The position numbers and the translations under genes are program-made. Of a stretch of DNA of 64,000 nucleotides, positions 30,931 to 62,050 are shown in pieces; position 1 is the first letter of the stretch; every line of letters begins with the position of its first letter. Below the pieces are notes generated by a model, which was given only the letters and a program-made list of their open reading frames with translations, did no database searches and was not told where the DNA came from. The stretch is taken from assembly GCA_029978085.1 (NCBI GenBank), contig JAPOJV010000001.1, positions 2,110 through 66,109 of the forward strand. Reading direction: 5' to 3'. This stretch comes from a bacterium (GTDB lineage Bacteria; Planctomycetota; Planctomycetia; Pirellulales; UBA1268).

Positions 30931-31087
30931 GGTAGCCCGGTCACGGTAGCCCGGTCACGGTAGCCCGGTCACGGTAGCCCGGTCACGCCGTGACCGGAAA
31001 GCCTGTCACGGCGTGACAGGACCACACCGGAAAGTCTGTCACGGCGTGATAAACCCACTTGAGCCCGTCACGGAGTGACGGGCCTAC
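30931..31087. repeat. REP-like cluster 1: four tandem 14-mers GGTAGCCCGGTCAC followed by four palindromes
   Basis: Tandem units at 30931, 30945, 30959 and 30973. Palindromes: CCGGTCACGCCGTGACCGG (30979-30997), CTGTCACGGCGTGACAG (31003-31019), a degenerate copy (31036-31050), and GCCCGTCACGGAGTGACGGGC (31063-31083) followed by CTAC. Confidence 0.9.
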
Positions 31088-31210
31088 GACCGGGCAATCC
31101 GGGCAACCCCTACCGATTCCTCCGGAGGTGCCGCAGGAATCGGCCCCGAGCGTCGATCCTCCCTCCGGGCGGTGTCTCTACCGCCATTCCTCGAGGCGGA
31201 GGGAAACCGG

Positions 31211-32083
31211 ATGGCGATGCACGCGGGCGGACTGGGGATCCACGTGGCGGAACTGCCTGCAGCGGCCCGGCCGCGGCCGGCGCTGTTTCGGGCGCTCGGG
31301 AAGCACGAGCCCCCGCGCACGATCCGGATGCAGGGGGAGTCGTTTCACCGGCAGGAAACCCTCAAGCACGATTCCTGGGCCGCATCCGCCGTCTACGCCT
31401 CCGCGACGCGCAAGGCGATCTGCAAGTTCAACCGCCGCCAGCCGATCCTCGTGATCCCGATGGCCTGGCTGGGCCGGTTGCTCGCCCGACGTGAAGAGCG
31501 GTTCATGGAACGGCTCGCGGGCATCGACGGCATCCCGGTGTCGCTCGGCGCGGTGGAGGTGGAGGGTCGCCGGCTCACCAATGCGGTGGCCCACGAGTGG
31601 ATCGAGGGGCATGCGCTCGCGGAAGAAGAGCGGGTAAACGACCAGTTCTTCCCGCGTCTTGCCGCGCTTTTGGCGGAGGCCCATCGCCGCGGCGTGGCCC
31701 ACGTCGATCTCCACAAGCGTGAGAACATCCTCGTCGACGACGACGGACGGCCGCACCTGATCGACTTCCAGATCTCGTTCGCCCTGCCGCGGTCGAACCG
31801 GCTCGTGGCCGGCCTCTGCGGCGGCCTGCTTCGGCTCCTGCAGCGGTGCGACGACTACCACCTGCTCAAGCACCGGCTGCGGCATCGCCCCGACCAGATC
31901 TCGGCCACCGCCGCCGACCTCGAGCAACTCCGGCCCTGGTGGATCCGGGCCCACCGCTGCGTGGCGGTGCCCTTCCGCAGGGTTCGTCGTGGGCTGCTCA
32001 CGATGCTCAGAATCCGGTCGCGGGGCGGTCACGCCCACACCGAGGCCTTCCCCGAGATCGCCCACCGCCGCGTCGCGGCCTGA
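31211..32083 (+). CDS. Protein-kinase-like fold protein (Kdo/WaaP/RIO-type)
   Basis: ORF 31172..32083; start chosen at ATG 31211. GVAHVDLHKRENILVDDDGRPHLIDFQ resembles the catalytic loop and DFx of the lipopolysaccharide-kinase family. Confidence 0.55.
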   Translation: MAMHAGGLGIHVAELPAAARPRPALFRALGKHEPPRTIRMQGESFHRQETLKHDSWAASAVYASATRKAICKFNRRQPILVIPMAWLGRLLARREERFMERLAGIDGIPVSLGAVEVEGRRLTNAVAHEWIEGHALAEEERVNDQFFPRLAALLAEAHRRGVAHVDLHKRENILVDDDGRPHLIDFQISFALPRSNRLVAGLCGGLLRLLQRCDDYHLLKHRLRHRPDQISATAADLEQLRPWWIRAHRCVAVPFRRVRRGLLTMLRIRSRGGHAHTEAFPEIAHRRVAA

Positions 32084-32127
32084 CCGCGCCATTCTGCTAC
32101 GGCCGATCTGGACTCGGGCTGCCTGCC

Positions 32128-32252
32128 GTAGGCCCGTTGCTCCGCAACGGGCAAGCAAGTGGCCCGGTCACGCCGTGACCGGAGAAACAGCCCGTCACGG
32201 AGTGACGGGCCTCCGACCGGCATGCCTGTCACGGCGTGACAGGACCACCTAC
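32128..32252. repeat. REP-like cluster 2: four palindromes with GTAG/GTGG heads
   Basis: GTAG followed by GCCCGTTGCTCCGCAACGGGC (32132-32152). GTGG followed by CCGGTCACGCCGTGACCGG (32164-32182). GCCCGTCACGGAGTGACGGGC (32190-32210). CCTGTCACGGCGTGACAGG (32225-32243) followed by CTAC (32249-32252). Confidence 0.9.
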
Positions 32253-32320
32253 CACGCAGCTTGCCTAGATTGCCGCCGTAGCACAGAGACGTTGTAGTCG
32301 GCTCAAGCTGCCCGACCGGC

Positions 32321-33253
32321 ATGGCCGATACGACCGGCAGGGTGTGGTGCGCCTCCACTGCGCACGCCCTCTCGGACACGCTCGCCATGGCCAGTTCACC
32401 CGCCACCGCCGCCCCGCAGTCCGCCGTCAACGGCTGGCTCGCCGGGATGGTCGCCAACCTCGGCAGCTTCGCGATGTCGAGCGTGGCCGGCATCGGCGAC
32501 GTGGCGATCTTCACGCTCCAGACGTTCGGCTGGATGTTCGCCAGGCGGCAGCGGCGCGACGTGCTCCTCCCGAGCTTCTACCAGATCGGCGTGATGTCGC
32601 TGCCGGTGGTCGCGCTCACGGGGCTCTTTATCGGCATGGTGCTCGCCGTGCAGAGCTACGCCCAGTTCAAGGCGCTCGGCCTCGAGACCCGGCTCGGCTC
32701 CGTGATCAACCTCTCGCTCGTCCGCGAGCTCGGCCCGGTACTCGCGGCCACGATGCTCGCCGGCCGCGTCGGCAGCGCGATGGCCGCCGAGCTGGGCACG
32801 ATGCGGGTGACCGAGCAGATCGATGCGCTCGAGAGCATGGGGGCCAACCCCATCTATTACCTGGTCGTGCCCCGGTTCCTCGGCTGCCTCGTGCTCATCC
32901 CGTCGCTCACGGTGATGGCCGACTTCATGGGTGTGCTCGGCGGCTATCTCTACTCGCATGTGCTGCTCGGGATCGACTACCACCACTATTGGGAAAACTC
33001 CCGGGCCTACGTCGATGCCTTCGACTTCCTGATGGGCATCTTCAAGAGCTTTTTCTTCGGCGCGGCGATCGCCCTGGTGAGCTGCCACCACGGCTTTCAC
33101 TGCACGCCCGGCGCCGAGGGCGTGGGACGGGCTGCTACCAATGCCTTCGTCCACTCGTTCGTCCTGATTCTCGTGCTCGATCTGTTCCTCGGGATCGGGC
33201 TCAACAATTTCCACGACTTCTTCCGGCCCGAAGGTCCCCGCAAGCTGCTCTGA
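32321..33253 (+). CDS. mlaE: MlaE-like ABC transporter permease (start uncertain)
   Basis: [45 protein letters not shown] is the MlaE/YrbE signature. Possible internal starts at 32387 or later. Confidence 0.85.
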
Positions 33254-33271
33254 CCCGCGAGCCACCATCCC

Positions 33272-34198
33272 ATGCCCGCTACCGCTCCCGCCACCTCCCG
33301 AGCCAATGCCGAGTCCGACCCGCCGGTCCTGCGGGTCGATGGGCTCGGCGTGCGGTTCGGCAGCCAGCAGGTACTCCGCGACATCTCGCTCGACCTGGAT
33401 GCCGGGCAGACGCTCGTTGTGCTCGGGGAGAGCGGCTGCGGCAAGACGGTGCTGCTCAAGACGATGATCGGTCTCGTGCGGCCGACCGCGGGCGATGTCG
33501 CCTTCGAGGGGCGATCGCTGTCGCGAATGAACGACCGCCAACTCGCCCACCTGCGCACGAAATACGGCTTCGTGTTCCAGGGGGCTGCCCTCTTCGACAG
33601 CTACACGATCGCCGACAACATCGCCTTTCCGCTCCGCGAGCACACGCGGCTCTCCGAGCACGAGATCGCAGAGATCGTGGGCACGCTGGTCGACGAGGTG
33701 GGGCTACCGCGCACGGTGCTGTTGAAAAAGCCGGTGCAGCTCTCGGGGGGCATGCGGAAGCGGGCGGGCCTCGCCCGGGCGCTGGCCCTCGATCCCCAAC
33801 TCGTCCTCTACGACGAACCGACCACCGGCCTCGACCCGATCATGACCGATGTGATCAACGAGCTGATCCTCCGGGTGCGAGAGCGGCCGCGGGTGACGAG
33901 CGTGGTTGTCACGCACGACATGTCGACGGCCCGCAAGGTGGCCGACCGGATCATCATGCTCTACCCGCTCTTTCGACTGCGGCCCGACGAGCCGCAGATC
34001 GTGTTCGACGGCACGCCTGCGGACCTCGACCGCAGCCGCGACCCACGGGTTCGCCAGTTCATCGAGGGGCGGGCCGGGAACCGGCTGACCGAGTTGCTCG
34101 AGGAGCAGGGTCTGACCGAACGTGGCCGGCCCACTGCCACTGATGGTGGAGCGGTCACCGACGACGAGACGACTGACGACGAGGAGGAGACGACGTGA
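33272..34198 (+). CDS. mlaF: MlaF-like ABC transporter ATP-binding protein with an acidic C-terminal tail
   Basis: Walker A GESGCGKT, signature LSGGMRKRAGLARAL, Walker B LVLYDEPTTGLD. Confidence 0.88.
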   Translation: MPATAPATSRANAESDPPVLRVDGLGVRFGSQQVLRDISLDLDAGQTLVVLGESGCGKTVLLKTMIGLVRPTAGDVAFEGRSLSRMNDRQLAHLRTKYGFVFQGAALFDSYTIADNIAFPLREHTRLSEHEIAEIVGTLVDEVGLPRTVLLKKPVQLSGGMRKRAGLARALALDPQLVLYDEPTTGLDPIMTDVINELILRVRERPRVTSVVVTHDMSTARKVADRIIMLYPLFRLRPDEPQIVFDGTPADLDRSRDPRVRQFIEGRAGNRLTELLEEQGLTERGRPTATDGGAVTDDETTDDEEETT

Positions 34199-35262
34199 AC
34201 GACCGCATGATGCAGTTTCGCGTGGGTGTGGTGGTACTGGCGACAGCCATCATCGCCGGCATCCTGATCGTGCTCTTCGGCGACCTGCCGTCGCTCGTAC
34301 AGGCGACCTATCCGCTCAAGATGAGCTTCGCCGACGCCCGCGGCGTGTCGAACGGCACGCCTGTGCGGAAGAACGGCATCCTCGTCGGCCGGGTGGCCGA
34401 CGTGGAGCTCGACGAAAGAGGGGGCGTGAGCGTCGTGGCCGACATCGACTCCTACGTGCCGATCTACAAGGACGAGCAGCCACGGATCGCCACGACGCTG
34501 CTCGGTGACGCCGAGATCCAGCTCGTTCCGGGCCGGGTCGTGCCGCCACGGCAACGGATCGCTCCAGAGGAGGTGCTCGTGGGGGCCGTCTCCCGCGATC
34601 CCTTCGAGGTCTTCGCCACGCTGGAGCCGAAGCTCGGCTCGGCCCTCGAATCGCTCACGCAGGCGAGCGAGTCGGTGACAAAGCTCTCGGCCAACCTCGA
34701 CCGGCTCCTGCTCGGCGAAGACGACACGTTCGCCAAGATGGTGGCGAAGACGGAGAAGGCCCTCGACGCCTTCAGCCTGGCGATGGACAACATCAACGAC
34801 GTGATGGGCGACGCCAACGCCCGAGCGAAACTGAAGGAGACGCTCAACGGCCTGCCGGAGGTGATGAATGACCTCCGCACCACCGTGCAGGGCATCGGCA
34901 CGACGGTGGACACGGCCGATCGCAACCTGCGGAACCTCGAGGGGCTCACCCGCCCGCTCGGCGAGCGGGGCGAGGGGATGGTGGCCCAGGTCGACAAGAC
35001 GATCGGCCGGCTCGATGAGGTGCTCCAGCAGGCCGTCTTCTTCACCAGGGCACTCAACGAGTCGGAAGGCACGCTCGGCAAGCTCGTCCGCGACCCGAAG
35101 GTCTACGACGACCTCGCCCAGGCAGCCGCCAACGTCAACAACCTCACGAAGGAACTCCGGCCGATCGTGGACGACGTTCGCGTGTTCACCGACAAGATCG
35201 CCCGCCATCCCGAGCAGCTCGGCGTCCGCGGCGCGCTCGACCGCCGCCCCGGGCTGAAGTAG
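34195..35262 (+). CDS. mlaD: MlaD-like MCE-domain substrate-binding protein
   Basis: N-terminal TM segment and MCE core (GVSNGTPVRKNGILVGRVADVEL), long helical C-terminus. 4-nt overlap with mlaF. Confidence 0.8.
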   Translation: MNDRMMQFRVGVVVLATAIIAGILIVLFGDLPSLVQATYPLKMSFADARGVSNGTPVRKNGILVGRVADVELDERGGVSVVADIDSYVPIYKDEQPRIATTLLGDAEIQLVPGRVVPPRQRIAPEEVLVGAVSRDPFEVFATLEPKLGSALESLTQASESVTKLSANLDRLLLGEDDTFAKMVAKTEKALDAFSLAMDNINDVMGDANARAKLKETLNGLPEVMNDLRTTVQGIGTTVDTADRNLRNLEGLTRPLGERGEGMVAQVDKTIGRLDEVLQQAVFFTRALNESEGTLGKLVRDPKVYDDLAQAAANVNNLTKELRPIVDDVRVFTDKIARHPEQLGVRGALDRRPGLK

Positions 35263-35305
35263 GCCCGTCAAGCCACGCAAACCGGTCACGGCGTGGCCGG
35301 GCTAC
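35259..35305. repeat. REP-like cluster 3 (degenerate forward unit plus inverted unit)
   Basis: The GTAG at 35259-35262 contains the mlaD TAG stop. CCGGTCACGGCGTGGCCGG (35282-35300, one mismatch) is followed by CTAC (35302-35305). Confidence 0.75.
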
Positions 35306-35309
35306 CCGT

Positions 35310-37976: not shown

Positions 37977-38855
37977 GGAAAGATTTGAGTGCCTATTCGA
38001 TCCCATGCAGACGCGTGCAGGGGTCGGGAAGTGTGCGCCTCCACCAGCCACCGGACATTCCGGTAGATGTGCCTGGAAAGGAGGTCGCACGGATGACAGC
38101 TTGGCTGCGGCGGCGCGTCGCCGGCGCAGTCCTGTCTGCCAGCGCAGACAGCCGTGCTGACCCGACGGGGGGGAGCGTCAGGGCGGCGGCTGACAGTCTG
38201 GAGCCGCGGGGGGGAGTCCTGTGGCGACGCAATGGTTCGCCAGCAGGTTCGAGCACAACGTGGGGGAGAGATTCCCGTCGAGCAATCGACCGGCCAAAGT
38301 GGCCATGGGGAGAAAGGATTCCTACACCGCAGGACCGGATTGCATCGCCGCACGCCACACGGACGCGCGTTCGCTTGCGATGCCCGTTTCTCGCGGCACC
38401 ATGAATCGAACCACGCCACTGGGTCCACTGATCACGCGTGTGCGTGCTCGGCTTCGCAGCGGCTGACGAAAAGTTTACGCTTCCGTGCAGCGAAAGCGAA
38501 ACATTTTTCGCCGCATTTGAGCAGGTGCATTCTGCGTGCCAGTGCGTTGCCGATTCCGCTCCGTGATCGGAAAGGCGTGCAGGAGCGGGTGCAGCGCGGG
38601 ACAGCCGGGCCAAAATCATTGAAGAATTGACAACGAGCCGAACCGGACGGTCACGGTGGGGCGGAAGGCGGGAATTTTTTTCAAGTCAGTCAGCGCGGCG
38701 CAGAAGTCGAGCCGGCGGAGCGAGGACCGTTCAAACCAAGTTAATCTAGGTATCTTCGGAAAGCCACGCACCTTTCTGTGCCCCGCGGCCTCACCCCCCT
38801 TCCAATCGGGCTTTGCGGTCGATTGGCCCCATTTTTGCGAGAAAAAACGGAATTC

Positions 38856-41200: not shown

Positions 41201-41722
41201 ATGCACCACGCGACTTCCGACATGACGTCCAATGACATGACGCCCCAGACCGGCTCCTCCCCCGCAGGCTGGCGGCTGGAGCGGCATGCCCACGGCCGGC
41301 TCGACTTCGTCGATGCCCAGGGCCGGCGGCATGCCAACGTGGACGTGCTCCGCGCCTTTCCCGTAAGCGACCCCGCCGGTCCGGCTGCGATCGTTGCCGC
41401 CGAAGGCGGTGAGTTGGCGTGGGTCGAATCACTCTCCGGCATCGCCGCCCCGCTTCGCACCATCCTCGAAACGGAGCTTGCCCAGCGGGAGTTTCTCCCG
41501 CGGATCGAACAGATCGAGGCGGTGTCCGATGGAGAGCCTGCCGAGTGGACCGTGGTCACCGACCGCGGCCCGCATCGGTTCAAGGTGGCCCACGCCGACG
41601 ACTTCGTCGCGCAGCCCGACGGCAGCGCATTCGTGACCGACAGCTACGGTATGCGATACGCGATCCCGAGCATCGCCGCCCTCGACCCCCGCAGCCGCCG
41701 CCTGCTCGAGCGCAAGGGGTAG
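41201..41722 (+). CDS. DUF1854-like protein (family reported as cyanophycin-metabolism-associated)
   Basis: The pattern GRLDFVDAQGRRH...VLRAFPVSDP...ELAWVESL...ELAQREFLPRIEQIEAV...WTVVTDRGPHRF...YGMRYAIPSIAALDPRSRRLLER matches my recollection of DUF1854. The gene immediately follows the ABC exporter. Confidence 0.65.
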   Translation: MHHATSDMTSNDMTPQTGSSPAGWRLERHAHGRLDFVDAQGRRHANVDVLRAFPVSDPAGPAAIVAAEGGELAWVESLSGIAAPLRTILETELAQREFLPRIEQIEAVSDGEPAEWTVVTDRGPHRFKVAHADDFVAQPDGSAFVTDSYGMRYAIPSIAALDPRSRRLLERKG

Positions 41723-41763
41723 GCCCGTCACGGAGTGACCGGAACAAGTCACTGCGTGACTTG
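41719..41763. repeat. REP-like cluster 4
   Basis: The GTAG at 41719-41722 contains the TAG stop of the upstream gene. CCCGTCACGGAGTGACCGG (one mismatch) and the perfect CAAGTCACTGCGTGACTTG (41745-41763). Confidence 0.8.
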
Positions 41764-41923
41764 CCCACGGGCCCTTCCCCGACCCCGTAAGATGGACGGG
41801 TTACGCCGTTCATGAGGGACGGGGGCCTGTTTTTCGCGAAAAAACGTGGTTTTTTTCTCAACCTTTCGGTTGAAGCCTGCGTACATCGGATTAGTCTCGA
41901 AGGGTCTTTTCAGGAGCCAACTC

Positions 41924-43630
41924 ATGACCCCGTTCGGCCGCCGTTCGAACGCCTCTCGCCGCCTGCTGTCGCTGGCGTGCACCGCCCTCGTCGTCGCACC
42001 GCAGGCTCCCGCCATGCGGACCGCGCGGGCCCAGTGCTGTGGTGACGCCGTCGTCGCCCCCGCTCCGGTCGCCACGCAGACCTACCGCCTCGACTACCAG
42101 ACCGTCTACGACGAGCAGCAGGTCACCGCCTACCGCATCTCGCAGGAGACCGTCTACGACTCGAAAACCTACACCGTGCAGAAGCCGGTCTGGGAGACGC
42201 AGACGCAGGAGCGTCGTTACACCGTGCAGCGTCCCGTGTGGGAAACGCAGACCCGCGAGGAGCGGACCACGGTGATGAAGCCCGTGTACGAGACGCAGAT
42301 CCAGGATCGCAGCTACGACGTCACCCGTGACGTAATCGAGACGGCGACCCGCGAGGAGCAGTACACGGTGATGAAGCCTGTGTACGAGACCGTGATGCAG
42401 CAGCAGGTCTCAACCGTCCGCAAGCCGATCTACGAGACGAGTGAGCGGGAGCAGGCCTACACCGTCACCGAGCCGGTCACCCAGATGCGGACCGCCTACT
42501 CCGTCGGCAGCCAGGCCGTTGACACCGTCACGCCCGTCGTCACGCCGGGCACGACGTCGCTCGGCTGGGTGCCCGCCAGCTACGCCATCGACCCCTCCAC
42601 GGGTCTCGCCGTCATGCAGCGGGGCGGCTGGGTGTGGCAGATGAATCCCGGCGCGGTCGTCAACCAGGTGAACCGCGTCTACCAGCCCACCTACACGCCG
42701 GTGCAGGTGCCTGAGACGACCTACGTCAACCGCGTGGTGACGCAGAAGGTGCCGGTGCAGACGGTCCGCTACGTCGATGAGCAGGTCGTCCAGCAGGTGC
42801 CCGTGCAGACCATGAAGATGGTTGCCGAGACGGCGACCCGTCAGGTGCCCGTGCAGACCGTCCGCAAGGTGGTCGAGCGGGTCGAGAACAAGGTGCCGGT
42901 CACCGTCTGCCGGATGGTGCCCGAGGAACAGGTCCGCCAGGTGCAGATGCAGGTGATGAAGTACGTCACCGAGGAAAAGGTCGAGCCGGTGCAGGTGCAG
43001 GTGATGAAGTACGTCACCGAGGAGCGGACGATGCAGGTGCCGCGGGTCGTCGAGAAGCGGACGCCCTACACCTACACAGTGCGGATGCCGCGGACGGTGG
43101 TCACGAAGGTGCCGCTCGACCCGTGTGGCAATCCGATTCCGGCTGCGGCGATGACCGCCGCTCCGGCTGCAGCCTCGCGTCCGACGTCGGCCCCTGCTCC
43201 GGCGATCTCTACCACCGACTCTGGCCCCCTGAAGACGTTCAGCGACCGGCCGGCCGACGCGCCGAAGAAAGTCGAAGAGGGCTGGGGCGCGTCGAATCTC
43301 AACCATGTTGACCCTGCCACGAGCTCCGCGGGCACGGTGCGGGCCGAGAAGCCGGTCGTCGATTCGGCTCAGGCTCCGAGCAGCGAGCAGTCGCTGAAGA
43401 AGATCGAGACGATTCCGGCGCCGGCCGCGAAGGAGCCGGGAGCGGCCCCGCAGACGCCGAGTCAGTCGGCGCCGAAGGCAGCCCCGCAGCCGGCGGTCGA
43501 GCAGTCGCCGACGGTCGCCCCGCCGGGTCCGGCTGTGTATCCGCCGCCGCCGGCCTCCGATCCCCGCGACGTGCCGGCTGCCGAGACCTCGGGCCGCAGC
43601 CTCACCGGCCGCCACGGCCACACGACGTGA
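41924..43630 (+). CDS. Secreted YTV-repeat protein with a Pro/Ala-rich C-terminus
   Basis: ORF 41846..43630 trimmed to ATG 41924 (signal peptide MTPFGRRSNASRRLLSLACTALVVAPQAPA). Tandem repeats of about 18 aa, YTV(Q/M)KPV(W/Y)ETQ..E(R/E)...; a 27-bp perfect direct repeat at 42949 and 42997. Confidence 0.75.
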   Translation: MTPFGRRSNASRRLLSLACTALVVAPQAPAMRTARAQCCGDAVVAPAPVATQTYRLDYQTVYDEQQVTAYRISQETVYDSKTYTVQKPVWETQTQERRYTVQRPVWETQTREERTTVMKPVYETQIQDRSYDVTRDVIETATREEQYTVMKPVYETVMQQQVSTVRKPIYETSEREQAYTVTEPVTQMRTAYSVGSQAVDTVTPVVTPGTTSLGWVPASYAIDPSTGLAVMQRGGWVWQMNPGAVVNQVNRVYQPTYTPVQVPETTYVNRVVTQKVPVQTVRYVDEQVVQQVPVQTMKMVAETATRQVPVQTVRKVVERVENKVPVTVCRMVPEEQVRQVQMQVMKYVTEEKVEPVQVQVMKYVTEERTMQVPRVVEKRTPYTYTVRMPRTVVTKVPLDPCGNPIPAAAMTAAPAAASRPTSAPAPAISTTDSGPLKTFSDRPADAPKKVEEGWGASNLNHVDPATSSAGTVRAEKPVVDSAQAPSSEQSLKKIETIPAPAAKEPGAAPQTPSQSAPKAAPQPAVEQSPTVAPPGPAVYPPPPASDPRDVPAAETSGRSLTGRHGHTT

Positions 43631-43642
43631 TTGCCGCGTGGG

Positions 43643-43704
43643 CAAGTCACGCCGTGACTTGTTTTCCGGTCACGGCGTGACCGGGCTACCGTGACCGGGC
43701 CTAC
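43643..43704. repeat. REP-like cluster 5 (inverted orientation)
   Basis: CAAGTCACGCCGTGACTTG (43643-43661) and CCGGTCACGGCGTGACCGG (43666-43684), followed by GCTACC-GTGACCGGGC-CTAC. That last segment is 1.7 copies of the 14-mer in reverse orientation. Confidence 0.85.
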
Positions 43705-47005: not shown

Positions 47006-47971
47006 ATGCCCGAGACGGTCACGGACGACCAGATTCTGCCTGCGCACGGCGTCCGCCGGCTGTACACGGCAGCCATGATGGCCGAGGTGCTCGATGTCTC
47101 GCCCGCAGCCGTGCGGCACTGGGTGCGGGAGCGGCTCTTGGAGCCGATGCGGCGGTCGGGCTCGCTCGAATGGTTCGACTTCAGCCAGCTCGTGGTGGGC
47201 CGGAATCTCGCCCGCCTGCTCCGCGGTGGCCTGTCACTGCGGGAGATCGACGACAAGCTGGCCGATCTGGTGGCCGGCGGAGGCCCTGCGGCGGCCCAGG
47301 CCACGGACCGGATCGTGGCCGATGGCCGGCGGCTCAGCCTCAAAAGTGGTGACCGGCTGCTGAGCGCCGGGGGGCAGCTGCAATTGCCGTTCTACACGTC
47401 GTCACTCGTCGCGGCCGCCGAGCCGATCGACACCGTGCCCGCGGTGCGGCTCATCGACATGGCCGCCGCCCGTGCCGCCGCGACGTCGCCTCAATGCACT
47501 GCCGAGCGGGATGCCGCCGCGGAGGCCACCGAGATCCTCGACCTCGCCGATGATCTCGAGGCAGCCGGTGAATTCGCCGAGGCGGCCGAGGCGTTGCGAG
47601 CGGTGCTCCAGGCCCAGGGGCCGTCGGCGGCGGTCATGTTCACGCTCGCCGAGTTGCTCTACCGGGCTGGCGATCTTACGGCGTCCCGGGAGCGGTACTA
47701 CGCCACGATCGAGATCGACCCCGAGCACCTGCGGGCCCGGGCGAGCCTGGGGTGTGTCTTGGCGGAGCTCGGCGAGCACGAGCTGGCCCTCGCGGCGCTC
47801 GAGGGCGTGCTGCGGCAGGAGCCCGACTACGCCGATGCCCACTGGCACATCGCCGGCGTGCTCCACGAAATGGGCCGTGCGCGGGACGCGCGGCACCATC
47901 TCGCCACGTTCCTCACGCTCGCGCCCGAGAGTCCGTGGGCCACCCTCGCCCGACAGCGGCTCGAAGCGTAG
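47006..47971 (+). CDS. MerR-type HTH plus TPR-domain protein
   Basis: ORF 46826..47971 trimmed to ATG 47006. LYTAAMMAEVLDVSPAAVRHWVRERLL is the HTH; the C-terminal part has TPR repeats (AELLYRAGDLTASRERYYATIEIDPEH...). Confidence 0.7.
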   Translation: MPETVTDDQILPAHGVRRLYTAAMMAEVLDVSPAAVRHWVRERLLEPMRRSGSLEWFDFSQLVVGRNLARLLRGGLSLREIDDKLADLVAGGGPAAAQATDRIVADGRRLSLKSGDRLLSAGGQLQLPFYTSSLVAAAEPIDTVPAVRLIDMAAARAAATSPQCTAERDAAAEATEILDLADDLEAAGEFAEAAEALRAVLQAQGPSAAVMFTLAELLYRAGDLTASRERYYATIEIDPEHLRARASLGCVLAELGEHELALAALEGVLRQEPDYADAHWHIAGVLHEMGRARDARHHLATFLTLAPESPWATLARQRLEA

Positions 47972-48036
47972 GCAGCCCGGTCACAGTAGCCCGGTCACGC
48001 CGTGACCGGAAGTCTGTCACGGCGTGACAGACCCAC
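47968..48036. repeat. REP-like cluster 6
   Basis: The GTAG at 47968-47971 contains the TAG stop. Two 14-mer heads (GGCAGCCCGGTCAC, AGTAGCCCGGTCAC), then CCGGTCACGCCGTGACCGG (47991-48009) and CTGTCACGGCGTGACAG (48014-48030) followed by CCAC. Confidence 0.88.
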
Positions 48037-48043: not shown

Positions 48044-48649
48044 TCAGTACGCGCCCCACGGTCCGCGGACGGCATTCACGCCGAACTGCACGGTGTCGCT
48101 CGGCTGGTTGGGCGTCGGCAGGAATCGTCCGCCGCCTCCGGCCACGGCGCCGGGTCCCGGATAGGGACGCCGAAACTGATGGTAGATCGGCGCCACCCGC
48201 GAGCTCGGCACGCCCCAGCCGTATTGCGTTTGGAACTCGGCCGTGGGGGGCACGACGAGCGCGATCGGCCGGCCTTCGGCGGGATCGTACCAGGCGCTGT
48301 GCGAGCTCTTGCCCTGGCTTCGCAGGAAGTAGCGCTTCTCGATCACGTCATGATGAAGCCAGTGGCCGTCGCAGAGGCCGTGGGCACAGCAGTGTCCGCA
48401 GCCGTGACCGCCACAGTGGCCGCAGCCGTGGTGATGGCCGCAGTGCCGCCCGCAGCCGTGATGCCCCACATGCCCGTGGTGCGGCCCGCACGCAGGACCG
48501 GCGCATCCGGGCACCGGGCCGTATCCGCCGGAGCCCGCCGGATAGGCCGGCCCTCCGGCGTGGCATAGGTGGCTCGTCGCCCAGCCAAGCGTCACCACGC
48601 ATGCGACGGCAGCCAGCTGCCGGCGCAGGTCACGAGTCAACTGCCGCAT
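48044..48649 (-). CDS. Secreted His/Cys/Gly-rich protein (putative metal binding)
   Basis: Signal-like N-terminus followed by HHGHVGHHGCGRHCGHHHGCGHCGGHGCGHCCAHGLCDGH. The C-terminal half is Pro/Tyr-rich. Confidence 0.6.
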   Translation of the reverse strand: MRQLTRDLRRQLAAVACVVTLGWATSHLCHAGGPAYPAGSGGYGPVPGCAGPACGPHHGHVGHHGCGRHCGHHHGCGHCGGHGCGHCCAHGLCDGHWLHHDVIEKRYFLRSQGKSSHSAWYDPAEGRPIALVVPPTAEFQTQYGWGVPSSRVAPIYHQFRRPYPGPGAVAGGGGRFLPTPNQPSDTVQFGVNAVRGPWGAY

Positions 48650-51476: not shown

Positions 51477-51616
51477 GTAGTCCACATGCTCCGCATGTGG
51501 CCCACGGCTCAAACACCACAGACCCGAACTACTCCCCTGCGGGCCCGCGAACCTCCGACTGAATAGCCGGCCTCCCGGCCTTCATACTCCAACCGCACGC
51601 GGAGTGTGCGGACTAC
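51477..51616. repeat. REP-like cluster 7: two inverted GTAG-headed hairpins about 92 bp apart (REPIN-like)
   Basis: GTAG-T-CCACATGCTCCGCATGTGG (51477-51500) and CCGCACGCGGAGTGTGCGG-A-CTAC (51593-51616). Different stems, the same CTCCG/CGGAG centre. Confidence 0.8.
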
Positions 51617-54026: not shown

Positions 54027-54080
54027 GAAACTCCTGGGAGGGAATGCTGTCGAGCAAGGAGGCTGCTGATTCGATGCCGA

Positions 54081-54782: not shown

Positions 54783-54819
54783 CAACGCATCTTCTCCAGA
54801 TTTGGTGGCTGGCACCTTT
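54720..54819. repeat. Inverted repeat, copy 3: 21-bp perfect arms, 58-bp spacer, straddling the DUF1080 start codon
   Basis: AAAGGTGCCAGCCACCAAATC (54720-54740, inside the CDS, encoding DLVAGTF on the minus strand) pairs with GATTTGGTGGCTGGCACCTTT (54799-54819, beginning 1 nt after the upstream gene's stop). Confidence 0.9.
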
Positions 54820-55845
54820 TTAAACCGCGACGGGTGCGCCCCCTTGCGCCGCACTTTTGTCGGCGGCGAAGATCACGGCGAACGTGCGGGCGGCCTCGCG
54901 GAAGCTCGTGAGCGGCATCGGCTCGCCCCGGTCGAGGGCGTCGAAGAACGCCTGGAACTGGGCCTGATACGGGTGGTCGCTCACGTCGCCCGAGTCGAGC
55001 ATCTTCATCGAGAGCCGGCTCCAGTGCCCCTTATCGGCCTTGAGCTTCATCGAATGGAAGCGGTCGTCGAGCAGGCTCCCCTCGCTGCCGACCAGGTGCG
55101 TGTGGAAGTAGTAGGGCTGCAGGCAGTCGACGATCGCGGCCGTCTTGCCTACGGCGCCGTTCTTGAACCGCAGGATCGTGACGCTCGACGTGTCGTATTC
55201 GTACGGCGTGAAAAACTCGCTCGCCGACTTGGTGCTGATGCTCGACACGCTCTCCACCTCATCTCCCATGAGCATGAGCAGCGCATCGAGCGCGTGGCAG
55301 CCAGCCGTGAGCAGGGCGCTGCCCCCCTCCTTCTTGCCGGTGTTCCACCGGTATTGGCCATACCAGGGGCCGATCCCGTGGTAGTAGTCGACCTCGCCGT
55401 AGTGCAGCCGGCCGAGCAGCCCCTCGTCGAGCAGCGCCTTCGTCACCTGGAACTGGTTGGAGAACCGACACTCGAAGCAGACGCAGCCCTGCACGCCGTT
55501 GGCCTCGGCCGCCGCGAGGATGTCGCTGACTTCCTCCGGCGAGTTGGCCATCGGCTTCTCGAGGATCACGTGCTTCTTCGCCTTCGCCGCCGCGACAGCC
55601 TGCTCACGGTGCAGGCTCGGCAGGCCCGTGATGTCGACGACGTCGATCCCGGGATCGGCCAGCATGTCGTCGAGCCGCTGATACACACGGATCGGGCAGC
55701 CGTGCTTCGCGGAGAGCTCCGCCGCATCGAGCGGCCGCGACGAGCAGACGGCCACGACGCGGCCCTGCCGCGTGGCGTTGATGGCGGCCAGGTGGGCCGT
55801 CGCCGCCCAGCCGTAGCCCACGATGCCGACGTTCACGTTCTTCAT
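54820..55845 (-). CDS. Gfo/Idh/MocA-family oxidoreductase (no signal peptide)
   Basis: VGIVGYGWAATAH Rossmann motif, VILEKPMA. ATGA overlap with the upstream gene. Confidence 0.88.
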   Translation of the reverse strand: MKNVNVGIVGYGWAATAHLAAINATRQGRVVAVCSSRPLDAAELSAKHGCPIRVYQRLDDMLADPGIDVVDITGLPSLHREQAVAAAKAKKHVILEKPMANSPEEVSDILAAAEANGVQGCVCFECRFSNQFQVTKALLDEGLLGRLHYGEVDYYHGIGPWYGQYRWNTGKKEGGSALLTAGCHALDALLMLMGDEVESVSSISTKSASEFFTPYEYDTSSVTILRFKNGAVGKTAAIVDCLQPYYFHTHLVGSEGSLLDDRFHSMKLKADKGHWSRLSMKMLDSGDVSDHPYQAQFQAFFDALDRGEPMPLTSFREAARTFAVIFAADKSAAQGGAPVAV

Positions 55846-57839: not shown

Positions 57840-57887
57840 CAGATACTCCTCTGGTCATGATCCTGAAGGGAACGATAGAGCCGGCGG

Positions 57888-59219
57888 CTACACGAGCTTT
57901 GTCCGGCCGGGAATGGCGTGCGCCGGGGCAGGCAAGGCACCGTCCCAGGCGAGATCCTTGGGAAAGAGGTCGAGCTGCGACTCCTTGGTCACGAAATCCC
58001 ACGTGACCCGCTGGCCGGAGTAGGCCGCAAGCCGGCCCATCACCGCGACGAGCGAGCTGTCGGCGGTCTGCTTCAGCTCGACGATCGGCGTGCCGGCGCG
58101 GATCGAGTCGACGAGATCCTTGTGCTCCTGCTGATAGGCGGCGCCGATGTTGCCGCCCGTCTGCCAGACCACCTTCCCGTCGCGGTCGAGAATCTTCGAG
58201 CCCGCGTTCATGGCGCCGATGTGGCAGGTGCCCTGGGAGCCATACACGACGGTGCTGTTGTCGGCCGCTGACCCCGGAATCTGTCGGCACAGAAACGACA
58301 CGGTGCGATTCCCCGGATACTCATAGTCGATGCTCATCGAGTCCCACATCTCGCTGTCGGCAGGCCGCGTGAACCGGCCGCCGGAGCCGTAGGCCGAGAG
58401 CGGATTATCGCCCATCAGCCAATTGATGGTGTCGATATTGTGGACGGCCTGCTCGCAGATCTGGTCACCGCTCAGCCAGATGAAGTGCATCCAATTGTTG
58501 AGCTGATACTGGGCGTCGCTCATGTCGGGCTGACGGCCTCGATACCAGATGCCGCTCGAGCAATACCGGGTCGTCGCGTGGATCACGTCGCCGATCTCCC
58601 CCTTGCGAATCCGCTCGATGGCCTCGATGTAGCTCGGCTGGCGGCGATACTGCGTACCTGTGACGATGGCGGTGTGTTGGGCCGCCGCCTTGTCGTGGGC
58701 CTCGAGGCAGATGCGGTAGCCCGCCGGATCGACGCACGCCGGCTTTTCGGCGAAGACGTGCTTCCCCGCCTCCACGGCCTCCAAGAGATACCGCGGCCGG
58801 AAGCCGGGCGACGTGGTGAGCAGCACGATGTCGACGGCCGGATCGTCGAGGATTTGTTTGTAGCCGTCGAGGCCGCCGTACATCTTCGCGTCGTCGATCG
58901 CCACCTTGTCGCCGTGGGACGCGAGGCTCTTCCGCAGGGCCGCGCACTTGGCCGGAGAGAGGTCGGCCGCCGCGACGATCTTCACGCCCTGGTTGATCGA
59001 CAGCGAGTCGTTGACGGCGCCGCTGCCCCGGCCGCCGCAGCCCACGATGCCGAGTCGCAGCTCGCGAACCTCCTCCGCGGCAGCGACCGACGAGTGCACC
59101 ATCAGGCCGGAGGCGAGCGACGCAGCCGCGCCCGCCCCGAGAAAGCCACGGCGGCTCGAGGTCTGATCCATGCCTGATGCCTGGCCCATGATCATCGTCT
59201 CCGAAGGTGAATCGTTCAT
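57888..59219 (-). CDS. Gfo/Idh/MocA-family oxidoreductase with a twin-arginine signal
   Basis: ORF 57888..59387 trimmed to ATG 59219 (one-nt TGATG overlap with the upstream stop). SSRRGFLGAGAAA, LGIVGCGGRGSG, VFAEKPAC. Confidence 0.85.
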   Translation of the reverse strand: MNDSPSETMIMGQASGMDQTSSRRGFLGAGAAASLASGLMVHSSVAAAEEVRELRLGIVGCGGRGSGAVNDSLSINQGVKIVAAADLSPAKCAALRKSLASHGDKVAIDDAKMYGGLDGYKQILDDPAVDIVLLTTSPGFRPRYLLEAVEAGKHVFAEKPACVDPAGYRICLEAHDKAAAQHTAIVTGTQYRRQPSYIEAIERIRKGEIGDVIHATTRYCSSGIWYRGRQPDMSDAQYQLNNWMHFIWLSGDQICEQAVHNIDTINWLMGDNPLSAYGSGGRFTRPADSEMWDSMSIDYEYPGNRTVSFLCRQIPGSAADNSTVVYGSQGTCHIGAMNAGSKILDRDGKVVWQTGGNIGAAYQQEHKDLVDSIRAGTPIVELKQTADSSLVAVMGRLAAYSGQRVTWDFVTKESQLDLFPKDLAWDGALPAPAHAIPGRTKLV

Positions 59220-60154
59220 CAGCCGAGCAGGGCCGTCTTCATCTGATCCAGCACGGTTTTCAGCCGGGGCACGTCGCCTCCGCCCACCTCGGCGGAGACC
59301 CAGCCCTTGAAGCCGATGTCGGCGAGCGCGGCACGCACGGCCGCCCAGTCGATATCGCCGGCCGTGATATCGACGAAGCCCTTCCACTTGCCTTCGGCAT
59401 CGGCCTTGGCATTGGAATAGCCCTTGATGTCGAGCTTGACGATCCGCGGTCCGAGCTCACGAATCCAGGCGGCCACGTCGCCATAGCGGGCGTGGTTGCC
59501 GAGATCGAAGAAGGCGCCGACCCACGGGCTCTCAAAGCTGTCGATGTAGTCGGCGAACGGCGTGACCGACTGGGTCCGCGGCCCGTCGTCCTGGTAGAAG
59601 AGGCCGTTCCACACGTTCTCGAACAGGATTCGCTGGCCGAGCGTGGCCGCCAGCGGAATGGCCTTGCGAATCTCGTCGCGAGCCCGAGCCGGCCCCTCCG
59701 GCCCGTCGGTCGCCTTGCCGACGACGACGAGCACGCCGCTCCCGCCGGCCGCGTGCGACACGCGGATGCAGTGCATGAGGTTGGCAAGCCCCGCCGCCCG
59801 CACGGCGTCGTCGGGGCTCGTAAGCGTCTTGCCCCAGTGGGCGTGATTGATTGCGTTATGAATGAAGACGCCCGTGCTGGCAGCCGCCTCCCGCAATTGC
59901 TCCGGCGTTACAGACGCCGCGTCGTCGAAGTCGACGCCATCCATCCCGGCCTCACGGGCAGAGGCAAGCCGCTCGTCGAGGCTCCCGCCCTTGGTCATCG
60001 TGTACTTGCACGAGAACAGGAGCCCCTGCGGGGGCTCCGGGAGCGACACGGTGCCGGCGGGGGCTGTCTTCGTCACGGCATCATCTGCGTGAGCTGTGGT
60101 CGAGGCGACGGCAGCGGCGACCGATGCGAGCAATTCGCGACGCTTAAGGCGCAT
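59219..60154 (-). CDS. Xylose-isomerase-like TIM-barrel protein (sugar phosphate isomerase/epimerase family) with a signal peptide
   Basis: MRLKRRELLASVAAAVASTTAHA signal. GMDGVDFD, ILFENVWN and FDLGNH patterns are typical of the family. Confidence 0.75.
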   Translation of the reverse strand: MRLKRRELLASVAAAVASTTAHADDAVTKTAPAGTVSLPEPPQGLLFSCKYTMTKGGSLDERLASAREAGMDGVDFDDAASVTPEQLREAAASTGVFIHNAINHAHWGKTLTSPDDAVRAAGLANLMHCIRVSHAAGGSGVLVVVGKATDGPEGPARARDEIRKAIPLAATLGQRILFENVWNGLFYQDDGPRTQSVTPFADYIDSFESPWVGAFFDLGNHARYGDVAAWIRELGPRIVKLDIKGYSNAKADAEGKWKGFVDITAGDIDWAAVRAALADIGFKGWVSAEVGGGDVPRLKTVLDQMKTALLG

Positions 60155-60299
60155 GGGATCTCCAAAAAGCGGAAGCCGGCATCTTCGCCCCAGCGGATTC
60201 CAGCCGAAATACCCAAACGTCCAAAGTCATGCCTATTTGTACTTCACGGGGACTGATTGAGGCTGCCGGAAGATGGTATGAGAAGCGATTTTTTGTAAT

Positions 60300-61268
60300 A
60301 TGCACGGAGTTTCCCACGCGATCACACCGCGGCCCGCCCGGCATGCCATGCGTAAAAGTGCCAAGGAATACTACCGGTATCTCGCGGTGAACCCACGGGA
60401 CCACGCCTGGGGGCTGTGTGTCACGGGCGCCGGCTACCAGCCGGCTGCTCCGGGATCCGCGGGCGTACCCCGCCGGCGACACCCTCCGGGACACTTCTAC
60501 GCCTGGGATGCAGGCCGGGTGCTCAACGAGTATGCACTCGTCTACGTGACCCACGGCCAGGGCGAATTCGATTCCCAGGCCACGGGCCTGCGATCGCTCG
60601 AGGCCGGCGATGCCCTGATCCTGTTTCCGGGCGTATGGCACCGGTATCGGCCACTCCAGGATACGGGCTGGGGCAGCTACTGGATTCACTTCGAGGGGGA
60701 GACAGCCGATCGACTGCGAGCCACCAGCGCGATCCAGCCGCAGCAGGCCGTGCTCCGCGTCGGCCTCGATGAAACCATTCTCCAGGCCTTCACGACCGTG
60801 CTCGATGCCCTGCACGCCGAGTCGGCAGGCTTCGCCCAGATCGCCGCGGCCCGCACGATGGAGATCCTGGCTCGGATCGTCGGCGCGGCCGCGACCGAGC
60901 GGCCCGTCCCCCGGCTGCAGGCGATCGTCCGCCGGGCCCGGCTGATGCTAGAGGAGGATCCAGGCGGCCTGCCGCACGTCGAGGAGATGATCCGCACGTT
61001 CGACGTCAGCCGCACCCACTTCTTTCGCGTGTTCAAGGAACAGACGGGCCAGAGCCCCTATAAGTATCATCTCCAGCTCACGATCCGCCGCGCGGCCGAG
61101 ATGCTTCGCGACTCGCCGATGTCGGTGAAGCAGATCGCGGTGACGCTTGGCTTCCGCAACCCCTACCACTTTTCAAAGCTGTTCAAGCTGAAGACCGGCT
61201 CGTCGCCCCGCGACTACCGCCAGCACTGGCGGGCAATGTCGGCCCGCGAGGCCGTGACGGCCAGTTGA
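60300..61268 (+). CDS. AraC-family transcriptional regulator
   Basis: C-terminal HTH pair: HFFRVFKEQTGQSPYKYHLQLTIRRAAEML and IAVTLGFRNPYHFSKLFKLKTGSSPRDYR. Divergent from the minus-strand sugar operon. Confidence 0.88.
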   Translation: MHGVSHAITPRPARHAMRKSAKEYYRYLAVNPRDHAWGLCVTGAGYQPAAPGSAGVPRRRHPPGHFYAWDAGRVLNEYALVYVTHGQGEFDSQATGLRSLEAGDALILFPGVWHRYRPLQDTGWGSYWIHFEGETADRLRATSAIQPQQAVLRVGLDETILQAFTTVLDALHAESAGFAQIAAARTMEILARIVGAAATERPVPRLQAIVRRARLMLEEDPGGLPHVEEMIRTFDVSRTHFFRVFKEQTGQSPYKYHLQLTIRRAAEMLRDSPMSVKQIAVTLGFRNPYHFSKLFKLKTGSSPRDYRQHWRAMSAREAVTAS

Positions 61269-61318
61269 GCGACGCACGTTGACCTTTGTGATGCCCCCCG
61301 CCTTCCCGGAGCACTTTC

Positions 61319-61978
61319 ATGCACATCACTCCTGGCGCCCTCGCCGTCGGCCTCGTCATCATCTCCAGTTGCCTCGGCACGGCCCGAGCTGAGGACGCGT
61401 CACCAGCTCCCGCGGGATTCACGTCGCTCTTCACCGGCACCGATCTGACCGGCTGGGCCGGGGCGGTCGACAACTACGAGGTCCGCGACGGCGCGATCGT
61501 CTGCAAGCCCGGCCAGGGGGGCACGCTCCACACGAAAGAGTCATACGGCGACTTCATCGTGCGGTTCGAGTTCCTCCTGCCACCCGGCGGCAACAACGGC
61601 CTGGCGATCCGCTATCCGGGGAGCGGCGATCCGGCCTACACGGGGATGTGTGAGCTGCAGGTGCTCGACAGCGAGCATCCCAAGTATGCGAAGCTCGATC
61701 CCCGGCAGTATCACGGCTCCGCCTACGGCATGGCCGCCGCCCGCCGCGGCCACCTCCGGCCCACCGGCGAGTGGAACGAACAGCAGGTGACGGTGCAGGG
61801 CTCGCGGATCACGGTCGAGTTGAATGGCACGACGATCCTCGATGCCGACCTGAAAGACGTGACCGAGTTTCTCGACGGCAAAGCCCACCCCGGCAAGGAC
61901 TTGAAGGAGGGCTTCTTCGGGTTCGCCGGCCACGGCGACTCGGTCATGTTCCGCCGCATCGCGATCAAGCGACTGTAG
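61319..61978 (+). CDS. DUF1080 (3-keto-disaccharide hydrolase family) secreted protein
   Basis: Signal peptide, FTSLFTGTDLTGWAG, YEVRDGAIVC, YGDFIVRFEFLLPPGGNNGLAIR. Confidence 0.85.
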   Translation: MHITPGALAVGLVIISSCLGTARAEDASPAPAGFTSLFTGTDLTGWAGAVDNYEVRDGAIVCKPGQGGTLHTKESYGDFIVRFEFLLPPGGNNGLAIRYPGSGDPAYTGMCELQVLDSEHPKYAKLDPRQYHGSAYGMAAARRGHLRPTGEWNEQQVTVQGSRITVELNGTTILDADLKDVTEFLDGKAHPGKDLKEGFFGFAGHGDSVMFRRIAIKRL

Positions 61979-62003
61979 TTCCGAGGGCTGCGCATGACCG
62001 TTC

Positions 62004-62050
62004 GTAGGCCCGTTGCTCCGTGACGGGCTGCCCGTTGCGGAGCAACGGGC
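62004..62050. repeat. REP-like cluster 8
   Basis: GTAG (62004-62007) followed by GCCCGTTGCTCCGTGACGGGC, a hybrid of the two stem types, and then GCCCGTTGCGGAGCAACGGGC (62030-62050). Confidence 0.85.

Follow-up and report, generated by a model that had tools for sequence, protein, structure and literature searches.

A GTAG-tagged palindromic repeat family, probably of the REP type, at gene ends in a Pirellulales genome and its relatives

The superfamily of GTAG-tagged repetitive extragenic palindromic (REP) sequences was defined by Di Nocera, De Gregorio and Rocco in 2013 from 24 families across phyla, in a survey that includes R. baltica (families GTAG-20/21) and Opitutus terrae and that places REP-associated tyrosine transposases (RAYTs) in Planctomycetes and Verrucomicrobia (PMC3733652). 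Members of the superfamily have GTRG/GTGG tag variants, stems of 6-9 bp with complementary variants and a tendency to form head-to-head pairs and clusters; they are biased to co-directional and convergent gaps between genes, their tags can supply a TAG stop codon and their REPtrons are repeat-specific, while CGTC-type REPs are reported in the same work without a dedicated transposase (PMC3733652). Stenotrophomonas maltophilia (SMAG / REPSm) and Marinomonas have group 3 REPs in which GTAG precedes a perfect 8-bp palindrome with a 3-nt loop, about 23 nt in all; in vitro assays, whose substrates included one with its loop reversed, showed that recognition of the loop is base-specific and that the tetranucleotide acts as the guide for where cleavage takes place, GTGG being usable with a shifted site (Corneloup et al. 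2021, PMC8266576). The bacterial interspersed mosaic elements (BIMEs) of E. coli are clusters of REPs in alternating orientation (PMC2817692). Here we describe a repeat family in a stretch of 64,000 nucleotides from a freshwater bacterium of the Pirellulales lineage UBA1268 (metagenome-assembled genome, assembly GCA_029978085.1, contig JAPOJV010000001.1, positions 2,110 to 66,109 of the forward strand; hereafter the window), where eight clusters of short tagged palindromes follow the ends of genes. We consider it likely that these clusters are a REP family of the GTAG-tagged superfamily, arranged mostly as head-to-head pairs resembling BIMEs or REPINs (REP doublets forming hairpins), and mobilisation of the family by a RAYT can reasonably be inferred by analogy with the systems above.

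Architecture, position and spread of the repeats

Eight intergenic clusters, spread from 30.9 to 62.1 kb, contain about 20 units and five half-units, the 20 or so units falling within 33 kb of the window. A first-pass annotation made from the letters of the DNA alone had placed about 20 units in eight clusters and none in the first 30 kb, and both statements hold, with GTCAC-N1-3-GTGAC never occurring before 30.9 kb. This pattern has 13 matches in the window, all beyond that point, against 0.27 expected from shuffled sequence, while GTRG-N4-GTCAC-N3-GTGAC with at most one mismatch has 14 against 0.02 expected by chance, figures that rule out chance palindromes and bear out the reported GTAG or GTGG ahead of the units; the tag stands 4 nt before GTCAC in 11 of the 14. 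One match, at 42320, lies within the YTV gene without a tag and is excluded from the family. A scan for perfect hairpins showed that nearly all stems of at least 9 bp in the window belong to the repeat family.

Each unit follows a single plan of 24-25 nt, consisting of GT(A/G)G, one spacer base, a perfect stem, generally of 8-9 bp and up to 10 bp, a 3-nt loop and the returning stem, and the loop, read from the tag, is TCC or GCC closed by a C:G pair. The description of the units as GTCAC-N1-3-GTGAC is right for most of them, except that the loop is always 3 nt and 'N1' counts the closing C:G pair as loop. The outer 3 bp of the stem are free to vary between units; CCGG, CCTG, CCCG and CAAG all occur among the copies and the opposite arm changes to match, as had been noticed, and the identical copies reported for CCGGTCACGCCGTGACCGG (30979, 32164 and 47991) and CTGTCACGGCGTGACAG (31003, 32226 and 48014) are indeed present. 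Three inner stem types can be distinguished, GTCAC in the majority, GTTGC at 32128, 62004 and 62030, and CATGC and CACAC at 51477 and 51593, all with the same tag, spacing and C-TCC-G or C-GCC-G centre. The proposal that every cluster has a GTCAC core must therefore be narrowed, as clusters 7 and 8 and one unit of cluster 2 have CCACATGC, CCGCACAC and CCCGTTGC stems, with tag, spacing and TCC loop retained. A third tag, GGAG, is found at 32190-32214 and 62030-62054, and tandem half-units of 14 nt, made of the tag and the left arm, occur three times at 30932-30973 and again at 47968 and 43690.

In each of the eight clusters there is at least one pair with its tags pointing outwards (head-to-head), usually 4-7 nt apart, the exception in spacing being the pair at 51477-51616, which is 92 nt apart. 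When the eight segments were folded, all but one gave a single long hairpin, with energies of -24 to -46 kcal/mol and -53.5 kcal/mol for the long pair; the exception is the pair at 47986-48036, with a minimum-energy fold of two separate hairpins. The 5' GT(A/G)G tag, the short perfect palindrome, the inverted pairs and the position downstream of genes all agree with the REP-type family that the first-pass annotation had proposed. A CRISPR array (short palindromic repeats that are clustered and interspaced at regular distances) does not describe these loci, in which orientation alternates, spacers are 4-7 nt and tandem arrays repeat the spacer too, nor does a MITE (a miniature transposable element with inverted repeats) derived from a DDE insertion sequence, there being no duplicated flanks at filled versus empty orthologous sites and the elements being single hairpins with a one-sided tag. 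Neither known RNA families nor tRNAs were found in the window, including at 27.2, 41.8 and 51.5 kb.

The genes that precede clusters 1 to 8 are, in order, clpC, a kinase-like gene, mlaD, a DUF1854 gene, a YTV gene, a MerR-TPR gene, topoisomerase VI-B and a 3-keto-disaccharide hydrolase gene, and all eight clusters lie downstream of a + strand stop codon. Five are in co-directional gaps and three in convergent gaps, while none of the seven divergent gaps is occupied, again as had been described. Units are thus present in 8 of the 24 gaps of the window that contain a 3' end, with a marked difference between its parts: none of the 11 co-directional or convergent gaps of the first 30.9 kb has a unit, compared with 8 of 13 in the rest. 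Six of the unit-free gaps fall within one tightly packed run of + strand genes, 2.2-18.1 kb, inside which transcripts probably do not end.

In three clusters (35260, 41720 and 47969) the tag supplies its TAG as the stop codon of the gene upstream. TAG stops are also over-represented nearby, ending 6 of 11 cluster-adjacent genes versus 5 of 36 others (Fisher p = 0.011), and at the two sites that can be compared cleanly, relatives without the repeat still end the gene in (G)TAG at the same place (AAGTAG and TCGTAG). It may be either that units settle beside GTAG stops or that lost units left the tag behind.

Species-representative genomes were scanned with CCSGTCACGSMGTGACSGG, tag and loop orientation being left free, and at least 99 stretches matched; the counts that follow are those among the matches listed. 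About 85 come from many Planctomycetota metagenome-assembled genomes (MAGs), with labels such as Pirellulales, Planctomyces, Schlesneria, Gemmata, Gemmataceae, 'SH-PL62' and others, several of which carry many separate loci each, and the remainder are single untagged hits in other phyla. The motif is therefore not confined to the window: the GTCAC-(T/G)CC-GTGAC core is found in dozens of Planctomycetota MAGs labelled as several orders. Searching a plasmid collection yielded no repeat matches. In its usual form the repeat reads GTAG-N-CCGGTCAC-TCC-GTGACCGG and is followed, after 5-8 nt, by an inverted copy ending in CTAC. For 110 tagged GTCAC units the loop, relative to the tag, is TCC in 92, GCC in 13 and GGA in 3, and the tag is GTAG in 78 and GTGG in 32, with GGAG in a few units; when all 217 tagged 8-bp hairpins are taken, whatever their stem or loop, TCC/GCC accounts for 158 and the reverse complements GGA/GGC for 20. 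Because loop orientation relative to the tag is regular, the units are oriented elements and not plain palindromes. Across 55 distinct units none of the eight stem positions is invariant on either side, which is a measure of stem diversity and not independent proof of structure because the units were chosen for pairing. Pairs are head-to-head in 38 cases, tandem in 20 and never tail-to-tail, with spacers mostly of 4-6 nt.

The enrichment at 3' ends noticed in the window extends to these matches, of which 35 clusters are in co-directional, 25 in convergent and 3 in divergent gaps (binomial p = 2e-5 for depletion of the last), by crude gene calls based on open reading frames that were correct for 4 of 5 scorable GTCAC-core clusters of the window; of 12 further cases placed 'inside a gene', most are chance matches, untagged and from other phyla. 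Within Planctomycetota the family is widespread; it sits just after stop codons and avoids the divergent gaps that contain promoters.

It also turns over quickly. Near-identical contigs are present in several other metagenome assemblies, and strains about 99% identical to the window differ from it only in the repeat arrays, through tandem gain or loss of 14-nt half-units and of 32-33-nt modules of a unit plus its spacer. After clpC there are three half-units in the window, seven in strain L001 and one in L002, with one unit exchanged; a 33-nt module of a + unit plus spacer after the YTV gene is present in one, two or three copies in near-identical strains; and the array after the MerR-TPR gene is longer by one half-unit and one inverted unit in L131 and L132. 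A number of short contigs of the lineage (L137-L139) have their start within the repeats, as expected of multi-copy sequence.

Related species, taken as those with ThuA or ClpC proteins at 90% identity or above, vary in which sites are filled. After DUF1854 the number of GTCAC-family units is zero in L125, one (decayed) in L124, two in the window and at least six in L130, and L125 has three units of another GTAG family there. The site between mlaD and the cyanophycin synthetase gene (cphA; cluster 3) is empty in L125, where the genes overlap and the sequence is AAGTAG, and is occupied by another GTAG family in L124, while L124 and L127, in which the convergent genes overlap, have an empty MerR-TPR site (cluster 6). 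A different GTAG pair, with CCGCAGAGT / GTGCAGACT stems, is present at two sites in L124. The orthologous gaps read in L116 have no GTAG units, and two of them have an unrelated inverted-repeat element.

Some details of these other elements can be added. In L125, positions 7720-7850 hold three tandem CACAGGTT-GGAA-AACCTGTG-CTAC units; in L124, the GTAG pair found at 1490-1620 and 17560-17660 has CCGCRGAGT and GTGCAGACT as its stems, with a spacer of about 60 nt between its units; and in L116, a MITE-type inverted repeat, CTCTCCCTCTGGGAGAGG...TGAGGGTGC, lies at 4890-5050 and 14020-14130.

The partner transposase and alternative explanations

RAYTs were searched for with a motif regular expression and then with phmmer, using 13-17 RAYT/TIRYT queries from Additional file 5 of PMC3733652. 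Neither the motif search nor phmmer detected a Y1 transposase in the window, in keeping with the earlier remark that it contains no RAYT-like gene. The gene at 31172-32083, between clusters 1 and 2, was considered as a hidden transposase and rejected, having only a weak kinase-like match; tags face it from both sides, which is uninformative because this is automatic between any two head-to-head clusters.

Among the listed REP loci the only RAYT is an HYH-type gene in L018 (6900-7330), which scores 88 bits against the NCBIfam model for REP-associated tyrosine transposases (NF047646, cut-off 80). The clade to which it belongs has an H-Y-H motif and is highly conserved, with 4254 proteins at E<=1e-5, identities of 62-93% among the best 120 of the 4254 and named matches in Planctomycetota, Verrucomicrobiae and Acidobacteriota. 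TTGGAGT-GCGGYGAC-TY-GTCRCCGC units always flank its genes on both sides and often form tandem modules of 140-190 nt (L018, L102-L105, L109-L111), and the clade was set aside as a partner since at seven loci (six distinct places), some of them with 65-69% G+C, the flanks are never GTCAC units. A second clade, of the R. baltica rba11751 type, comprises 863 proteins across the phylum with about 60% identity across the taxa named, and its genes have GTAG-C-NGAANTC-GCCA-GANTTCN units on either side at a distance of 0-20 nt; at one locus the RAYT gene uses the TAG of the tag as its stop codon. Here too the flanks, GTAG units with a GCCA loop and not GTCAC units, led us to reject the clade as the partner. 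The clade of the Opitutus RAYT ote_2468 is small, with 26 proteins and named matches in Opitutaceae. A profile search of a representative set of 1.84 billion reached no other RAYT clade, because the best 150 matches were all of the HYH clade. REP-RAYT systems are common in the phylum, each with its own repeat, and neither the HYH-type nor the rba11751-type repeats occur in the window.

A separate observation concerns the related MAG JBJTAA01 (L003, L005, L007, L016 and L039), in which the same CCGGTCAC-KCC-GTGACCGG hairpin has the tag CAGGAGT in place of GTAG and is paired with a CCCGGTTCC-GGM-GGAACCGGG unit in tandem arrays with a period of 61-87 nt and up to six copies. The CAGGAGT tag is similar to the GGAGT tag of the repeats flanking HYH-type RAYTs. 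Those loci with a 61-67-nt period were considered as CRISPR-like arrays, and since the 'spacers' repeat too they are tandem REP modules.

If the clusters are a REP family mobilised by a RAYT, the units would be non-autonomous, and a Y1 HUH transposase of the RAYT/TnpA-REP type, its gene lying elsewhere in the genome, would act on them as single-stranded DNA substrates. Such an enzyme would read the hairpin and its loop, with the tetranucleotide guiding cleavage in the way observed in vitro for group 3 REPtrons. Slippage or recombination would then lengthen and shorten the local arrays, and an effect on mRNA 3' ends, if any, would be a by-product or a secondary use. A number of results weigh against this reading. 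No RAYT flanked by GTCAC-family units was found in the window, in the 99 listed REP loci (about 0.72 Mb) or in 25 loci of relatives (0.27 Mb, redundant). A DNA pattern made up of a unit, a stop codon and a Y-x3-N-P-x3-G-L motif, spaced as in both clades above, picked out all three rba-type loci, and no other sequence, in 0.8 Mb when CTAC alone stood in place of the unit, and with a GTCAC unit it had no matches in the JGI metagenome collection, a relaxed version yielding only four unrelated TIRYT-type transposases beside other palindromes. No insertion at a new site was seen among near-identical strains, all the changes being in tandem copy number. Finally, a REP family without a RAYT of its own is conceivable because CGTC-type REPs are reported to be so.

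The last point leads to the possibility that there is no dedicated transposase at all and that the repeats would spread and persist only through slippage in replication, duplication driven by the hairpins and recombination between copies. This has been proposed for the CGTC REPs, which are reported to lack a dedicated transposase (PMC3733652). The lack of a flanking RAYT in the sequences examined and in the targeted scans counts in favour of this explanation, as do strain polymorphisms that are all of tandem copy number in 14-nt or 32-33-nt steps. Slippage is unable to seed new loci, yet many unrelated loci are occupied in many genomes and a site filled in one species can be empty at the orthologous position in another; moreover, MAGs labelled as different orders share the tag, the fixed 1-nt spacer and the orientation of the loop, as recognition by a protein predicts, and both other tagged families of the phylum have a RAYT. 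We regard spread without a transposase as unlikely, though with an appreciable chance of being correct. Slightly less probable, in our estimation, is an ancient phylum-wide REP/REPIN lineage whose partner would be neither of the two RAYT clades above and instead a third Y1 clade encoded away from its repeats, or a transposase-free process, and whose repeats would settle at, or be kept at, GTAG stops because of the excess of TAG and the (G)TAG found in repeat-free relatives.

A different kind of explanation is that the hairpins are kept for a role in host RNA, as terminators or as barriers to exonucleases at the 3' end that stabilise the upstream mRNA, in a GC-rich genome poor in canonical terminators, and REPs are known to stabilise upstream mRNA in E. 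coli, which provides a precedent. All eight clusters of the window and 60 of the 63 classified clusters listed elsewhere are at an expected transcript 3' end, the folds are very stable, and terminator-like sites are not enriched between 30.5 and 50.4 kb (11 versus 6.9 +/- 2.7), with none at the ends of the cluster genes. However, by direct reading no unit is followed by a run of T, so that the units are not canonical terminators, and none of the 11 terminator-like sites in that interval coincides with a unit. The same gene ends in relatives have no unit, a decayed unit, a unit of another family or overlapping genes, and since unit content varies in this way no single site needs the hairpin; copy number is free to vary between strains, and the tag and loop orientation, features of the DNA, have no obvious use at the level of RNA. 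The free gain and loss at orthologous gene ends, seen by comparing sequences, argues against an RNA 3'-end role as the main reason for the repeats, and we consider such a role quite improbable. That the palindromes are instead binding sites of a host protein, such as a nucleoid or topology factor, and not mobile elements, is to our minds barely credible. IHF and gyrase do bind the BIMEs of E. coli and the inner GTCAC/GTGAC stem is conserved across many genomes, but units with other inner stems (GTTGC, CATGC, CACAC and CTCGC) keep the tag, spacing and loop, which fits recognition of a folded single strand and not of a duplex operator; the asymmetric tag and loop would not be expected of a dimeric duplex binder, and site content changes quickly.

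Should the family be what it appears to be, it would add a well-delimited case of REPs and REPINs outside Proteobacteria, with a core that is constant across MAGs labelled as several orders of Planctomycetota while the outer stem and the tag (GTAG, GTGG, GGAG) drift, and this variation would be natural material for learning what a RAYT reads. In practical terms, contigs of the lineage break at the repeats, and the half-unit arrays vary between strains in the manner of variable-number tandem repeats. There is no new kind of system here.

The eight clusters and other elements of the window

Cluster 1 begins 10 nt past the TGA stop of clpC with the + strand array of three tandem 14-nt half-units, GTAGCCCGGTCACG (tag and left arm, 30932-30973). 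The array is followed by a full + strand unit, GTAG-C-CCGGTCAC-GCC-GTGACCGG (30974-30997), that is the + half of a head-to-head pair, and by an inverted (- strand) unit, GTGG-T-CCTGTCAC-GCC-GTGACAGG (31002-31025); the pair, 30974-31025, folds into one hairpin (-32.1 kcal/mol, z -5.7). Two more inverted units on the - strand complete the cluster, a decayed one, CTGTCACGGCGTGAtAaaCCCAC (31035-31058), which strains L001 and L002 lack, having a GTAGGCCCGTTGCTCCGCAACGGGC unit in its place, and GTAG-GCCCGTCAC-TCC-GTGACGGGC (31063-31087). Cluster 2 has two + strand units, GTAG-GCCCGTTGC-TCC-GCAACGGGC with a different inner stem (32128-32152) and GTGG-C-CCGGTCAC-GCC-GTGACCGG (32159-32182), and then two inverted units on the - strand, GGAG-GCCCGTCAC-TCC-GTGACGGGC with the GGAG tag (32190-32214) and GTGG-T-CCTGTCAC-GCC-GTGACAGG (32225-32248).

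Cluster 3 occupies 35259-35305 in the convergent gap between mlaD and the cyanophycin synthetase gene and consists of a decayed + unit, in which the TAG at 35260-35262 is the stop codon of mlaD, and an inverted unit with one stem mismatch (35282-35305); its fold has an energy of -23.9 kcal/mol. Cluster 4 (41719-41768) is a head-to-head pair of a + unit at 41719-41742, with the TAG at 41720-41722 serving as the stop codon of the DUF1854 gene and a GGA loop that is an exception to TCC/GCC, and an inverted unit at 41745-41768, GTGG-G-CAAGTCAC-GCA-GTGACTTG. After the YTV gene, cluster 5 (43638-43704) opens with a + unit (GTGG-G-CAAGTCAC..., 43638-43661), continues with an inverted one (GTAG-C-CCGGTCAC..., 43666-43689) and closes with an additional half-unit of right arm and tag (43690-43704). 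Cluster 6 (47968-48036) lies in the convergent gap that separates the MerR-TPR gene from a His/Cys-rich gene. Its first element, a half-unit (47968-47985), supplies the upstream gene with its TAG stop codon (47969-47971), and after it come a + unit (47986-48009) and an inverted unit (48012-48036).

In cluster 7 (51477-51616) the head-to-head pair with the 92-nt spacer is made of GTAG-T-CCACATGC-TCC-GCATGTGG on the + strand (51477-51500) and the inverted unit GTAG-T-CCGCACAC-TCC-GCGTGCGG on the - strand (51593-51616), and it folds end to end with the -53.5 kcal/mol given above. A copy of the whole of 51477-51616, 83% identical, is present at a non-syntenic place in another MAG (L049, 7518-7666), and because this copy includes the spacer the 140-nt unit behaves as one dispersed element. 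Cluster 8 (62004-62054) is a head-to-head pair with the CCCGTTGC stem, a + unit with two mismatches at 62004-62028 and an inverted unit tagged GGAG at 62030-62054, that forms one 22-bp hairpin (-45.9 kcal/mol, z -9.2).

Two neighbours of the clusters deserve mention. The convergent gene at cluster 6 (48044-48649, - strand) has no Pfam match, and a repetitive stretch within it, 48360-48461, would encode His/Cys/Gly-rich repeats; the product may be a metal-binding protein. Between cluster 4 and the YTV gene, the leader at 41770-41925 is conserved in related species even where the preceding repeats differ, holds CCCGTAAGATGGACGGG and then GAAAAAACGYGGTTTTTTTCTCAACCTTTCGGTTGAAGCCTGCGTACATC, has no Rfam match and could be a promoter and 5' leader.

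Elsewhere in the window there is a second palindromic element, untagged, at 6503-6587 and 23920-24003. It has two inverted 23-nt arms, GAAAAAGGTGCCAGCCACC(T/A)TTT and AAAAGGTGGCTGGCACCTTTTTC, each of which is itself a hairpin, AAAAGGTG-CCAGC-CACCTTTT, with arm starts 57 nt apart in both copies and a variable spacer of about 35 nt. The copy at 6503 is in the gap after a gene ending at 6504 and the other lies near 24.0 kb; of the other fetched loci, only that of strain L001 has the element, at the corresponding site. The interval 27274-27370, upstream of a ThiD2-ThiE gene, holds an intergenic element some 97 nt long that reads GGTAGGCGAGGGGGTCGGTGCAAGC...ACCGCCCCTGAGCC on the - strand and has copies of 88-94% identity in L040 (3995-4091), L049 (3654-3734) and L083 (6298-6392); at the two of these three loci that were compared the neighbouring genes are unrelated (FlgI/HEAT-like and GFO_IDH_MocA). 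It has no Rfam match at E<=1 and folds no better than shuffled sequence (z -0.9), and a thiamine riboswitch was rejected, since copies elsewhere precede unrelated genes and Rfam gave no match.

Comparison with known REP systems

The two other REPtrons of planctomycetes, of the HYH and rba11751 types, resemble the window family in having a tag of 4-5 nt, a stem of 7-8 bp and a short conserved loop, and in both of them the units stand 0-20 nt from the ends of the RAYT gene with their tags facing it. They differ in their stems and loops, and neither clade has been seen beside a GTCAC-type unit. The likeness to E. coli BIMEs is in the alternating units and in the tandem modules of unit plus spacer that vary between strains. 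The stem of an E. coli REP is imperfect, with a bulge, and its loops are longer, whereas the stems of the window are perfect and the loops 3 nt. Bertels and Rainey reportedly described in 2011 the REPINs of Pseudomonas fluorescens as two inverted REPs with a short spacer that form one long hairpin, and an inverted pair of this sort is the common form of the repeat here; unlike REPINs, the halves of the window pairs are usually different stem variants (heterodimers), often one with GTAG and one with GTGG, and no flanking RAYT was found for the window family.

The match to the group 3 REPs is close, in that the units of the window fit their design point by point and the fixed orientation of the loop corresponds to the loop specificity of the group 3 enzymes. 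Group 3 REPs flank the RAYT that cleaves them in vitro, while the window family is known from its sequence, and the host phylum and the stem sequence are different. With the GTAG superfamily as a whole the family shares the unpaired GTAG/GTRG/GTGG end, stems within 6-9 bp, the short loops, the complementary stem variants, the head-to-head pairs and clusters, the co-directional or convergent location, the TAG of the tag used as a stop codon and the presence of several families per genome; it is set apart by its stem-loop sequence and by being common to many MAGs and not to one species. The R. baltica REPs appear to be unlike GTCAC-TCC-GTGAC, judging from the peptides encoded by intragenic R. 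baltica REPs, which do not match. The first-pass annotation had supposed the family to be undescribed for such genomes, and this seems to stand for the sequence family, the GTCAC core having no match in the searchable literature, but not for the kind of repeat, as GTAG-tagged REPs and RAYTs of R. baltica were reported in 2013 (PMC3733652). What we describe thus seems to be new at the level of the sequence family and of a core unchanged across the phylum, and a further member of a kind of system that is already known.

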